A DNA stretch of 64,000 nucleotides. Source: Gammaproteobacteria bacterium. GTDB lineage: Bacteria > Pseudomonadota > Gammaproteobacteria > Eutrophobiales > Eutrophobiaceae. The position numbers and the translations under genes are program-made. Location: contig OZ245331.1 in the NCBI GenBank assembly GCA_965226155.1, forward strand, positions 1,082,605 to 1,146,604, read 5' to 3'. Shown one piece after another: positions 37,536 through 41,919 of the stretch. The notes under the pieces are model-generated. The model was given only the letters and a program-made list of their open reading frames with translations, ran no database searches and was not told the origin of the DNA. Each line of letters begins with the position of its first letter. The first letter of the stretch is position 1.

Positions 37536-38680
37536 ATGTCAGTTACTAAGTTAAAATCGTTTATATCCACTTTTATAGCATGCTTCGGTCTGACGTGGTG
37601 CGGTAGCGTCATGGTGGACTACAAGCTGAATTTGACTCAGGGTGCCACTACCATTAGTAGGGAAGTGTATTACCTGCACATGCTCGCCTTGTGGGTCGTA
37701 TCTGACATCGGCGTTATCGTTTTCGGCCTGATGTTTTGGTCTATCATATTCCATAGAAAATCAAAAGGGAGCCCAGCAGCCCAATTTCATCACAGCACAA
37801 AGTGGGAAGCGCTATGGACAGTAATACCGATTTTTATACTACTCTCCTTCGCAGCACCATCTACTAGAACCCTTATTCTGATGGAAGACACTGAAGATTC
37901 GGAGATGACGATCAAGGTCACGGGGTATCAATGGAAGTGGCGATATGAATATTTAGATGAAGGCATTAGTTTTTTCAGTGCTCTCGCGCCGGAACATAAT
38001 CAGGCGATAGAGAAAAATTCCGGCGTGGACGCAACGTAGATAGAGAATTACTTGCTTGAAGTTGACACTCCGCTGGTCATCCCCAAAAAAAAATCCGCAT
38101 CCTGACTACGGCCAACGATGTTATTCACGCATGGTGGATACCAGAATTAGGTTGGAAGCGTGATGCCATCCCTGGCTTTATCAATGTTAACTGGACCAGG
38201 CTTACTGAACCGGGAATATACCGTGGCCAGTGTGCAGAATTGTGCGGAAAGGATCATGCTTATATGCTTGTTGTGCTTGAAGCGGTAAGCGAAAGTGATT
38301 TCGCAGACTGGGTTGTACGAAAAAAGCGTGAATTGGCCGAGGCTGCTGCGGGCGCTGACAGGGATTGGACGATGGCAGAACTCATGGAACGAGGTCAAAG
38401 GGTTTATACTTCCACTTGCATAACATGTCACCAAGCGAACGGTCAGGGTTTGCCTCCAACCTTTCCAGCGCTTACCGGAAGCGCAGTAACGACCGGCCCC
38501 TTGCAGGAACATCTTAATGTCGTGCTTAATGGTCGACCCGGAACCACCATGCAGGCGTTCGGACAACAACTAAATACAGTGGATCTAGCGTCTGTCATTA
38601 TCTTTGAGCGTAACGCGCCAGGAAGCAGTGTCGGAGACATGGCTCAGCCCTTAGAGGTTAAAGCCGCATTTGGAAATTAA
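37536..38680 (+). pseudogene. coxB: Native-GC paralog of cytochrome c oxidase subunit II (caa3-type, with C-terminal cytochrome c domain), disrupted
   Basis: The N-terminal TM/CuA part (37536-38039) ends at an in-frame TAG (38037-38039). ENYLLEVDTPLVIPKKK..IHAWWIPELGW..CAELCGKDHAYM continues after a -1 shift in an A9 run (38083-38091). C-terminal CxxCH domain CITCH at 38240-38680. ~50% identical to the intact coxB at 53919-55106. Confidence 0.75.
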
Positions 38681-38716
38681 TCGAAAACAGCAAGTAACCA
38701 TTTGAGGTAACGACGA

Positions 38717-40308
38717 ATGAGCGAAGTAGTTATGCAAGATGATCATCCCCATGATGCGCATCCAACCGGATGGCGGCGTTGGTTGTTTACAGCCAATCAC
38801 AAAGACACAGGCACATTATATTTACTGTTTTCTTTGCTGATGTTTTTTGTGGGCGGTGCAATGGCTTTGGTTATTAGGGCAGAACTGTTTATGCCGGGGC
38901 TGCAAACTAGTCGAACCTCAATTTTTTAACTCCATGACGACCGTACACGCATTAGTAATGATATTTGGTGTGGTTATGCCAGGTACTGTTGGTTTCGCAA
39001 ACTGGTTGTTGCCACTAACGATAGGGGCGCCAGACATGGCTTTGCCTCGCATGAACAATTGGAGTTTTTGGATCTTACCCCTTGCATTTTCGCTCCTCTT
39101 TGTAACCTTTTTCCTTCCAGGAGGAGGGCCTGCAACGGGGTGGACTATGTGCCCGCCGCTAATGCTACAAACTGATCAGGCTTTGCCGTTTGTAATATTT
39201 GCCATCCATTTTCTTGGCGTGTCATCCATCATGGGCTCAAAAAACAACATCGCGACAATTTTAAATATGCGCGCACCAGGCATGAAATTAATGAGTCTAC
39301 CTCTGTTCGTTTGGACCTGGTTGGTGACGGCGTTTTTGCTAATTGCGTCTGTCCCGGTACTAGCCGGCGCTGTAACAATGTTGTTGACCGATAAATTTTT
39401 ACGAGCTTTTTCAACGCGGCTGGAGGAGGAGATCCAGTATTGTTTCAGCACGTATTCTGGTTCTTTGGACACCCTGAAGTCTATATTTTTATCTTGCCAG
39501 CGTTTGGCATCGTTTCTCAGATTATCCCGACCTTTGCACGTAAACCTTTATTCGGTTATGTGTCCATGGTCTAGGCAACTTGTTCTATTGGATTTCTGTC
39601 GTTTTTAGTTTGGGCGCACCATATGTTTACTGTTGGCATGCCGTTGGCTGCTGAGCTGTTCTTTATGTATGCAACAATGTCAATTGCGGTGCCGACAGGC
39701 GTTAAGATATTTAACTGGGTTGGCACTATGTGGAGAGGACGCATGACATTTGAAACCCCCATGTTGTTCGCGCTTGCATTTGCAATATTGTTTACCATCG
39801 GTGGATTTTCAGGGCTTATGCTAGGTATCGCCCCGGTTGATTTCCAATATCATGATACCTATTTCGTTGTTGCGCATTTTCACTAGCGTTGGTGACGGGG
39901 GCCATATTTGCAATGTTGGCAGGTGTCTACTACTGGTTACCTAAATGGACTGGTCATATGTACGACGAATTTTTGGGTAAGACGCACTTCTGGCTGGCTG
40001 TTGTTTCAGTCAATGTGCTGTTTTTCCCTCAACACTTCCTGGGTTTAGCAGGCATGCCTCGCCGCATACCAGATTACTCAATCCAGTTTTCAGAATGGAA
40101 CACAATATCAAGCATTGGCGGTTTTGTGTTTGGATTTAGCCAACTAATTTTGCTATGGGTCATTATCAAATCGATCAGGGGCGGTGAGAAGGCTACCGAT
40201 CAAGTTTGGGAGGGTGCGCGCGGGCTTGAATGGACTCTGTCGTCGCCACCGCCATATCATAGTTTTTTAACTCCGCCTGTAATCACCGATGGCACAGCGC
40301 ATTCATAG
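38717..40308 (+). pseudogene. coxA: Native-GC paralog of cytochrome c oxidase subunit I, fragmented into at least four frames
   Basis: Pieces 38717-38929, 38847-39608, 39623-39886 and 39889-40308 collinear with intact coxA. Lesions: +1 near 38904, -1 in a T5 run near 39390, in-frame TAG near 39565 (MV*AT), in-frame TAG at 39884-39886 (HFH*) plus an adjacent 1-nt deletion. Confidence 0.8.
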
Positions 40309-40450
40309 CTTGGCCATGGTGAGACATGACCATAACGGTAATATTAAATTGAACGAAGAGCTGTCTCGCAAAAACAAGAGACTGGCAATAATGCTCGGGT
40401 TTTTTTCGTTGCTAATGTATCTGGGATTTATTTTGGCTTATTCTTAAAAA

Positions 40451-41011
40451 ATGCAACAAGATCGAAACAAAAAAACCGTCTTAAGCTTAGCGCTAATTGC
40501 TATAGCGATGTTTGGGTTCGGGTATGCATTGGGGCCCTTGTACGATGTTATCTGTGAGATAACAGGTTTAAATGGAAAAACAGGAAGAGTGACGGAAACA
40601 CAAGCTGGGGCTAGTCAGTTAGACCAGGACAGATTAGTCACCATCCAATTTGACACCAATGTAAATAGCGAACTTCCATGGAAGTTTGGTTCCATGGTCA
40701 AGAAAATGCAGATACACCCAGGCGAGTTGAACGAGGCCGTGTTTTATGCAGAAAATCTGTCGTCACAGACAATTACCGGGCAGGCCGTTCCCAGCGTTGC
40801 ATCAGCCGAGGCATCCTTGTACTTTAATAAGACCGAATGTTTCTGTTTTACTCAACAGTCGTTGGAGCCAGGAGAGCGTATTGAAATGCCGGTACGTTTT
40901 ATAGTTGATCCAAAACTGCCAGAACGTATCAGGATGCTGACTCTGTCTTACACCTTTTCCCGTGTCCAGAGCCAAGTCACATTCACGGTCTCAGGCTATA
41001 GTGGTACATAG
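40451..41011 (+). CDS. ctaG: Cytochrome c oxidase assembly protein CtaG/Cox11 (native-GC copy, apparently intact)
   Basis: 186 aa; N-terminal TM and conserved CFCF copper-binding motif; paralog of the 51695-52267 gene. Confidence 0.8.
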   Translation: MQQDRNKKTVLSLALIAIAMFGFGYALGPLYDVICEITGLNGKTGRVTETQAGASQLDQDRLVTIQFDTNVNSELPWKFGSMVKKMQIHPGELNEAVFYAENLSSQTITGQAVPSVASAEASLYFNKTECFCFTQQSLEPGERIEMPVRFIVDPKLPERIRMLTLSYTFSRVQSQVTFTVSGYSGT

Positions 41012-41038
41012 AGATCATGAGCACCCATGTAACGGAGA

Positions 41039-41919
41039 ATGACTATGTCTGAATCAAATACTTCATACTATCTGCCGGATCCCAGCCACTGGCCTATCAC
41101 CAGTTCGATCGGACTGTTCACAATTTTTGTCGGTGGTGCAGTTTGGCTCAATGGGTTCGGATCAGGTCCTTGGATCCTTATAGCGGGCATTGCGGTGTTT
41201 GTATATATGCTGTTTGGTTGGTTTGGTATTGTTATTCGAGAAAGTGAAGGCGGGAAATACAATGATCAGGTAGATGATAGTTTTCGCATGTCGATGATCT
41301 GGTTTATTTTTTCTGAGGTCATGTTTTTCGCATGTTTTTTTGGCGTGCTATTTTATGCTCGGCTTTTTCTATTCCTTGGCTAGGCGGAGAAGGTGCTGGT
41401 GTCGCTACCAATTTGTTTCTGTGGCCTGATTTTGTTGCAGAGTGGCCGATTAATGTCATGCCTGATCCGTCAGGATTCAATATTTATACGGAATTCATGC
41501 CTGCATGGGGTATCCCTGCCATCAATACAGTCATACTTTTGGCGAGCGGCGCCACAGTGACTTTTGCACATTGGGAGTTAGAGGAAGGTAATCGATCGGG
41601 GTTGTGCTGGTGGTTAGCCGTGACGGTTGCTCTGGGTTTTGTATTTGTTTGTATGCAGGCGTATGAATATGTACACGCCCATGAAGAATTGAGCCTTACT
41701 ATGCATTCTGGGATTTACGGGACGACATTTTATATGTTAACAGGTTTTCATGGTGTGCACGTGTCCCTGGGCGCGACTATGTTAGCGGTTATTTTAGCCA
41801 GGGCGATGAAAGGCCATTTCAGAGAAGTTCATCATTTTGCCTTCGAAGCCTTTGCTTGGTATTGGCATTTCGTCGACGTCGTATGGTTGATGTTGTTTAT
41901 TACAGTCTACTGGGTTTGA
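41039..41919 (+). pseudogene. coxC: Native-GC paralog of cytochrome c oxidase subunit III, one frameshift
   Basis: Two ORFs (41039-41383, 41332-41919) collinear with intact coxC; the shift lies in a T5 run near 41366 (FYARLF|SIPWLGG); C-terminus FITVYWV matches the subunit III end. Confidence 0.7.

Follow-up and report, generated by a model that had tools for sequence, protein, structure and literature searches.

A resident cox operon in decay beside an acquired alternative complex III-caa3 oxidase block in a marine gammaproteobacterium

Results

The Native cox Operon

A 64-kb stretch of contig OZ245331.1, referred to here as the window and derived from the 2.76-Mb genome of a marine gammaproteobacterium, holds two sets of cox genes. 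The first is a low-GC operon on the plus strand (37536-41919), which we call native. It is homologous to coxB-coxA-ctaG-coxC and is split into about nine short open reading frames (ORFs). The second set lies on the minus strand inside a 13.7-kb block of higher GC, referred to as the island, together with the genes of an alternative complex III (ACIII). To the right of the island follow native assembly genes, including SURF1, ctaA and ctaB (Table 1). The native structural genes now evolve neutrally, whereas the island and the native assembly genes are under purifying selection.

A tblastn search with the island Cox proteins identified the short ORFs as pieces of coxB, coxA, ctaG and coxC in different frames, and the Pfam domains COX2_TM, COX1, CtaG_Cox11 and COX3 match the fragments of the native operon on Logan contigs. 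In a frameshift-aware alignment, the native proteins share 67% (coxB), 86% (coxA), 64% (ctaG) and 74% (coxC) amino acid identity with their orthologs at locus L001, one of 80 loci (L001-L080) retrieved by a scan with native CtaG of one genome per species (best identity 65%). An earlier note on this DNA had placed the native proteins at 50-55% amino acid identity to the island copies. This range is right for CoxC (54%), but CoxB and CtaG are more divergent (45% each) and CoxA is less so (66%).

The lesions were mapped by frameshift-aware dynamic programming of protein against DNA with the orthologs, followed by nucleotide alignments with L084 (JGI 3300010883), an intact and island-free close relative with 91% DNA identity to the native operon. 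Exactly seven disabling lesions were found. The coxB gene, the true start of which is probably located near 37611 by comparison with L084, has a CAG to TAG substitution (38037-38039) and a 4-nt deletion (38083/4) abutting an A9 run. Four lesions affect coxA: a 1-nt insertion (+1, at 38909), a 4-nt deletion (39400/1), a TAT to TAG substitution (39572-39574) and a 1-nt deletion (39885/6) that converts CAC-TAT-G into CAC-TAG, with the new stop at 39884-39886. In coxC a single 1-nt deletion shortens a T6 run to T5 (41363/4); it is common to L081, L082 and L172 (introduced below) and not found in L091. The earlier note had read most of this damage correctly, including the TAG and the A9-associated frameshift of coxB, the T-run frameshift of coxC and the open frame of ctaG. 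Its three indels in coxA are indeed present, but of the two or more TAG codons that it reported there only one is a substitution, the second being created by the 1-nt deletion, and two of the indels it listed for the operon are 4-nt deletions. None of the subunits I, II and III is encoded by an uninterrupted full-length frame in the native copy. Because of the seven frameshift and nonsense lesions we class this copy as a set of pseudogenes and not as a functional oxidase.

Intact orthologs occupy the same syntenic position in L084 (coxB 357 amino acids, coxA 531, coxC 291). In several samples, contigs of the L084 type are free of the island and have an intact native operon, and the native cox genes of L085-L090, from other samples, are intact likewise. 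Among the relatives in GTDB with coxA fully on the contig, the gene is one full-length ORF in 68 and has a single possible break in 2.

Short runs of a single nucleotide are involved in three of the five indels (A9, a T run and the T6 to T5 deletion), which could suggest that the lesions are consensus errors or are read through, leaving both operons functional. However, two Logan assemblies of independent read sets, L081 (ERR14231557) and L082 (ERR14231558), each provide a 12,013-bp contig covering 31591-43603 of the window with 99.98 and 99.89% identity, respectively, and zero gaps. Both TAGs are present in them and the native CtaG sequence is encoded exactly. Since these assemblies reproduce every indel and stop, the lesions are not consensus errors, the outcome that the earlier note had named as fatal to its reading. 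In addition, six of the seven lesions recur in a third strain, two of the indels remove 4 nt each, two lesions arose by base substitution to TAG, the flanking genes are clean on the same contigs, and the operon shows a neutral substitution pattern (see below). Recoding of TAG or programmed frameshifting is ruled out as well: TAG is an ordinary stop that terminates 7 of the 28 ordinary long ORFs in the window, and the five frameshifts are of mixed sign and length. The chance that artefact or recoding accounts for the lesions is thus practically nil, and we regard this explanation as effectively refuted.

The Native Copy Is the Ancestral One

The order bioC-bioD-coxB-coxA-ctaG-coxC-SURF1-PA0111-like-ctaA-ctaB is found in almost all of the 80 relatives of the CtaG scan. 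This conserved gene order, together with the intact coxA of the relatives, indicates that the low-GC operon is the vertically inherited copy, as the earlier note had assumed and as its close match to the L084 copy also supports. The reverse assignment, with a native island and a foreign low-GC operon, is ruled out by the same synteny.

The island differs from its surroundings in GC content (0.54 versus 0.44) and in GC at third codon positions (GC3; 0.56-0.71 versus 0.40-0.50). Homology to L084 ends sharply at 41983 and resumes at 55663. At the native site neither L084 nor any of the 80 relatives has the island, and in none of the 80 do ACIII genes occur within 10 kb of the native cox locus. 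An island-like cluster is present on an unrelated contig (L083) with 82.8% DNA identity over 12.5 kb, where it adjoins IS110 and IS200-type transposases. As expected of a horizontally acquired island, the block is thus atypical in composition and missing from this locus in the closest relative, and the proposal of the earlier note that the high-GC block was acquired is borne out. Classical signatures of mobility were searched for in 41984-55662 and no tRNA, integrase, transposase or flanking direct repeats were found; tRNA and Rfam searches of the whole window gave no match. The island is therefore better viewed as the product of recombinational exchange inside a conserved cox cluster, rather than as an integrative element. 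Exact-sequence look-ups of the island CoxA and CoxC found no record, and a metagenome scan with ctaG retrieved close relatives of the L084 type and no further island-bearing lineage.

Between the same flanks, L084 carries a different 5-kb minus-strand module (L084 11531-16481), which is also present in L001 and L002. This CtaCDEF-like module encodes a COX2 protein with cytochrome c domain (450 amino acids), a COX1 protein (588 amino acids), two COX3 proteins and COX4_pro. The island has therefore replaced another CtaCDEF-like oxidase module in the gap between coxC and SURF1. Three states of this gap were seen, i.e., occupied by the CtaCDEF-like module, occupied by the ACIII-caa3 block, or empty, and it looks like a swap site for terminal-oxidase modules.

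Gene Content of the Island and Its Flanks

Read along the minus strand, the island encodes a 136-residue protein, coxB, coxA, ctaG, coxC, a GldC-like protein, ActA-B1-B2-C-D-E-F and a PA0111-family protein (Table 1). All cox genes are full-length. CoxB (TIGR02866, 198.7 versus a cutoff of 147.7), CoxA (CtaD_CoxA, TIGR02891, 706.5 versus 670.75) and Cox11 (NF003465, 218 versus 162) score above the NCBIfam equivalog cutoffs, and subunit III is matched by Pfam COX3. Their dN/dS ratio against the L083 cluster is low (0.12-0.23), in agreement with the intact state that the earlier note had assigned to the island copy. The ACIII genes form a complete actA, B1, B2, C, D, E, F set, with the Pfam domains in the expected order: multihaem c (c7), molybdopterin-like, 4Fe-4S, NrfD, ActD (PF11821, 1.9e-42), monohaem c and NrfD. 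Compared to L091, their dN/dS ranges from 0.06 to 0.16. By homology with characterized complexes (PMC5928083), the island ACIII would act as a quinol:cytochrome c/caa3 oxidoreductase.

TABLE 1. Features of the window, with positions counted from its first nucleotide.
Feature	Position	Strand	Basis and remarks
Native coxB pseudogene	37536-38680	+	caa3-type subunit II with C-terminal cytochrome c domain; tblastn, frameshift-aware alignment
Native coxA pseudogene	38717-40308	+	Subunit I; four lesions
Native ctaG	40451-41011	+	Cox11 copper chaperone; uninterrupted 186-aa ORF; PF04442 match
Native coxC pseudogene	41045-41919	+	Subunit III; single lesion
Acquired ACIII and caa3 oxidase block (island), 13.7 kb	41984-55662	-	L084 breakpoints, GC shift, L083 identity
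Junction relics	41982-42132	+	Inverted copies of island coding pieces
DUF2909 small membrane protein	42111-42296	-	PF11137, E = 1e-14; inside the imported block
PA0111-family thioredoxin-like redox protein, island copy	42470-43054	-	NCBIfam NF058629; PF26971 on Logan contig
ActF, ActE, ActD, ActC, ActB2, ActB1, ActA	43153-50416	-	Pfam domains; all intact
GldC-like protein	50417-50761	-	Between island coxC and ActA; PF19937, 3.4e-28
Island coxC	50814-51698	-	Intact
Island ctaG	51695-52270	-	Intact
Island coxA	52260-53906	-	Intact
Island coxB	53919-55106	-	Intact
136-aa membrane-anchored protein, Trp-rich	55103-55513	-	Head of the island operon
SURF1	56204-56950	+	Intact
PA0111-family protein, native copy	56983-57558	+	Intact
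ctaA	57581-58588	+	Intact
ctaB	58551-59519	+	Intact
bioD	36696-37379	+	Intact backbone gene; upstream anchor of the bioD-cox synteny; Pfam on identical Logan contigs; dN/dS 0.12 versus L084
recF pseudogene	29279-30360	+	Between dnaN and gyrB; TIGR00611 pieces in at least three frames
comF/GntX-like pseudogene	32792-33480	-	1-nt deletion at 32949 versus L084

The native assembly genes were recognized by Pfam SURF1 and COX15-CtaA and by the NCBIfam PA0111 family and have native GC3 values (0.40-0.45). Against L084 their dN/dS lies between 0.08 and 0.25, with SURF1, ctaA and ctaB at 0.08-0.14. The cluster of L083 continues with ActF-SURF1-PA0111, whereas the island of the window is devoid of SURF1, ctaA and ctaB. 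As the earlier note had observed, these genes occur here in native context only. Lacking such genes of its own, the island presumably relies on the haem a and SURF1 machinery of the host for the maturation of its oxidase.

To the right of the island, identity with L084 drops to 0.72-0.77 (55663-57270) and returns to about 0.92 beyond 57.3 kb. Concordantly, SURF1, with low identity through its 5' half, has a dS of 0.65 between the window and L084, versus 0.25-0.30 for other backbone genes. The pattern would fit a recombination tract that brought a native-GC flank along with the island.

At the left junction, an 81-nt inverted copy (I1, 83%) of the 5' coding region of ActB1 (49690-49770) is followed by a 72-nt inverted copy (I2, 79%) of the 3' end of island coxC (50796-50867). 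This junction sequence is common to the window and L091 and is not found in L084. The relics may have been left behind by a past rearrangement or may stem from a second cluster copy. The adjacent DUF2909 gene aligns with L091 (dS 0.69) and not with L084. Among the smaller island genes, the GldC-like protein scores just under the TIGR03515 cutoff (99.2 versus 102 bits), and the 136-residue protein, for which no Pfam or NCBIfam family match was found, has a counterpart at the same position in L083 with 78% amino acid identity. Both genes are kept in the L083 cluster.

From Constraint to Drift

The earlier note had suggested comparing dN/dS of the broken copy with its orthologs. The outcome depends on the time scale. 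Against L084, the values of coxB (0.11), coxA (0.08), coxC (0.10) and ctaG (0.06) are like those of the neighbors (0.08-0.25), and 5 of 181 invariant CoxA columns are altered, e.g., Y to C in GWTxYPPL. Both observations indicate that the genes stayed under constraint during most of the period after the split from L084. When polarized with outgroups, however, private amino acid changes are more numerous in the window than in L084 (21 versus 6 for coxB, 21 versus 8 for coxA and 12 versus 3 for coxC), whereas those of the bio genes are symmetric. For coxA, the L084 branch has 6-8 such changes and that of the window 21. The relative-rate asymmetry is about 3:1. Judged from the excess of about 13-15 changes over some 1,200 nonsynonymous coxA sites and from the backbone dS of 0.25-0.30, inactivation would have occurred within roughly the last tenth of the window branch.

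The recent signal is that of neutrality. Between the window and the sister strain L172 (ENA ERZ25069191, an 86-kb island-bearing contig with 99.1% identity to the window over 20.7 kb), pN/pS reaches 0.87 for the native operon, whereas seven backbone genes give 0.27 and six island genes 0.41; the difference between operon and backbone is significant (Fisher p=0.018). Eleven of the 13 single-nucleotide polymorphisms (SNPs) between the L082 contig and the window fall inside the native operon (P=5e-4). The broken genes contain 10 SNPs relative to L082 and 1 relative to L081, each of them nonsynonymous, and most of those from L082 alter a residue that orthologs conserve.

A Sister Strain and a Second Decaying Lineage

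In L172, six of the seven lesions are present and the deletion at 39885 is missing, which makes the latter private to the window strain. L172 has three private lesions of its own: a 1-nt deletion at 38337 (coxB), a 1-nt insertion at 41845 (coxC) and a GAG to TAG substitution at 40733 (ctaG). The two ctaG genes differ at five positions, the TAG and four missense changes without any synonymous one, and all five are derived in L172. The ctaG of the window strain has acquired no derived change since the split and may be functional there.

The second lineage is represented by two contigs, L091 (ERZ25069191) and L173 (ERZ25067222, 343 kb). They align to each other without gaps at 99.7% identity, and their backbone DNA matches that of the window at about 78%. 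In both, the island sits at the junction sequence seen in the window. Through a 2.64-kb deletion, corresponding to 37926-40562 of the window, their native operon has lost two-thirds of coxB at its 3' side, the whole of coxA and codons 1-35 of ctaG. A stop interrupts what is left of coxB, and what is left of coxC contains four stops and a frameshift, none of which is the coxC lesion of the window. An orphan, low-GC, full-length Rieske gene petA (TIGR01416, 204 bits) lies between the coxC remnant and the DUF2909 gene in this lineage (L091 9323-9916; L173 18766-19359), with no adjacent petB or petC; it is absent from the window.

The inactivating lesions of the window/L172 clade and of the L091/L173 lineage do not overlap. 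Because the cox DNA of the window is L084-like (90%) and not L091-like (79%), and because L084 is intact, the two inactivations are independent. The comparison with island-free relatives that the earlier note had proposed thus gives a consistent picture: L084-type operons are intact, and both island-bearing lineages have lost theirs by different lesions.

Selective retention of ctaG finds no support. Its open frame cannot be taken as a sign of retention given the TAG in the sister strain and the loss of residues 1-35 in L091/L173. With seven lesions in 3.6 kb, about 1.1 are expected in its 561 bp, and the probability of none is about 0.34. The open native ctaG is most simply explained by chance.

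Discussion

In this study, we have described two cox gene sets in different states of preservation at one locus. We consider it likely that the native oxidase operon is decaying after its replacement by the acquired ACIII-caa3 module. The functional replacement put forward in the earlier note is supported at the level of sequence by dead, drifting native genes next to an intact and constrained island. ACIII is a quinol:cytochrome c oxidoreductase that hands its electrons straight to caa3 oxidase; the genes of both are often neighbors, and a supercomplex of both exists in Rhodothermus marinus (PMC5928083). Because ACIII can reduce the caa3 oxidase directly, the imported block would constitute a complete quinol-to-O2 branch. 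The 13.7-kb foreign block has entered, in inverted orientation, between native coxC and SURF1, where it took the place of the older CtaCDEF-like module. In the most plausible sequence of events, ACIII and its cognate oxidase, as a self-contained pathway from quinol to O2, would have made the resident oxidase redundant. Selection on the latter would then have lapsed, with mutation and subsequently deletion erasing its genes. The decay is stepwise and ongoing, with six lesions common to the window strains and L172, strain-private lesions and, in the distant lineage, the 2.6-kb deletion.

Several points weigh against this reading. The use of the island oxidase is deduced from its intact ORFs and low dN/dS, and the order of events, island first and decay second, relies on parsimony over four lineages. 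The dS of the island between the window and L091 (0.54-0.70) is about half that of the backbone (0.85-1.38), so that the island may be ancestral and lost in L084, or may have spread laterally. Together with the drop in L084 identity to the right of the island, the low dS hints at a transfer of the block among related lineages through homologous recombination. The contigs L172, L091 and L083 have only 3-6x coverage and some private single-base lesions may be errors, although the L091 sequence is confirmed by L173. Finally, decay is seen elsewhere in the same 64 kb (recF, comF) and insertion sequence (IS) elements occur in related contigs, so that generally weak selection, rather than redundancy alone, may drive the loss.

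This last point deserves further attention, as the operon could simply be a victim of general genome erosion under weak purifying selection (e.g., by host association or a small population), without a causal link to the island. The erosion is not specific to cox, since recF and the comF-like gene are also pseudogenes. The recF gene, located in the chromosomal origin region dnaA-dnaN-recF-gyrB (26651-32788), has at least three frameshifts and an in-frame stop near 30256, and its L173 counterpart is interrupted by an IS1595-containing insertion. The minimum of the cumulative GC skew, near 27-28 kb of the window, also falls in this origin region. The comF-like ORF is reduced from 229 to 186 amino acids by a frameshift that puts the VDDIITTG phosphoribosyltransferase (PRTase) motif out of frame; the Logan contigs have this lesion too, and L172 has no gene call at this place. 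Moreover, the backbone pN/pS between sister strains is fairly high. Nevertheless, we judge erosion without involvement of the island unlikely. Seven lesions are packed into 3.6 kb, while the remainder of the window consists of dense, long ORFs with about 55 other genes intact. A core respiratory operon that is intact in essentially all relatives can be lost only where another oxidase is available, and the only two lineages that are losing it are the two with the island. Genome-wide weak selection probably accelerates the loss of cox, but on its own it does not account for a core oxidase having become dispensable. Erosion and redundancy do not exclude but complement each other.

Alternatively, the inactivation may have been favored and not merely tolerated, if the resident oxidase were detrimental beside ACIII-caa3. 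Competition for haem a, copper, SURF1 or CtaA/CtaB is one conceivable cause, and the formation of mixed, non-productive complexes another. Two independent inactivations in island-bearing lineages, the reliance of the island on the same native assembly genes and an inactivation that looks fast relative to divergence point in this direction. Yet nothing separates positive selection from neutral loss here, the sample consists of two lineages, and a pN/pS of about 0.9 with gradual, strain-specific lesions is what neutral decay predicts. Selected loss is accordingly very improbable in our assessment. A broader and rather speculative scenario, to which we give slightly more credit while still doubting it, holds that the ACIII-caa3 module parasitizes host SURF1/CtaA/CtaB and repeatably drives out the native aa3 oxidase by selection, with the coxC-SURF1 gap as a cassette site for oxidase modules among related marine gammaproteobacteria.

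The replacement that we favor has counterparts among known systems. In xenologous gene displacement, a resident gene set is lost after the horizontal gain of a functional equivalent. The case presented here matches this description, as a foreign paralogous operon is intact and constrained while the vertical ortholog at the syntenic site is being lost. It differs in that the displaced copy is still present, in stages that run from intact to six or seven point lesions, to nine lesions including ctaG and to the 2.6-kb deletion. Furthermore, the incoming block lies within the resident cox cluster and seems to draw on the SURF1, ctaA and ctaB of that cluster. The native genes follow exactly the order of the canonical gammaproteobacterial aa3 cluster of the Pseudomonas aeruginosa PA0105-PA0113 type, which we take to be coxB-coxA-ctaG-coIII-DUF2909-SURF1-PA0111-ctaA-ctaB, with bioD upstream as in the approximately 80 relatives. 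The match to the NCBIfam "PA_0111/PP_0108 family" supports this link. Unlike in P. aeruginosa, the three structural genes have become pseudogenes, and coxC is parted from SURF1 by foreign DNA of 13.7 kb. Bacterial pseudogenes accumulate under relaxed selection, for instance in recently host-restricted lineages. The multi-lesion pseudogenes (recF, comF, cox), the small indels and nonsense mutations, the IS elements in related contigs and the deletion following point inactivation are all reminiscent of such lineages, whereas the otherwise high gene density of the window, with most genes intact, is not. With the ACIII-caa3 systems of R. marinus and Flavobacterium johnsoniae (PMC5928083), the island shares the full actAB1B2CDEF set beside a caa3 oxidase whose subunit II has a cytochrome c domain. 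It deviates in gene order (cox, GldC-like, act), in its gammaproteobacterial host and in being a recent import without SURF1. Our literature search returned nothing relevant on an ACIII-linked oxidase displacing a resident oxidase. The case is a well-resolved xenologous displacement with pseudogenization, i.e., a known kind of event and no new mechanism.

In summary, the locus provides an unusually clean, time-resolved natural example of an acquired respiratory module that probably displaces a resident one. Four related lineages directly show the stages of this process, from the intact operon through point inactivation and further decay including the chaperone gene to deletion, and the substitution statistics capture the switch from strong constraint to neutrality. 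For genome annotation, the example is a warning that counting cox genes overstates the respiratory repertoire and that an open ctaG should not be read as functional. For the organism itself, it shows that a foreign oxidase can be kept although it seems to rely on its host for the genes of haem a and SURF1 assembly.

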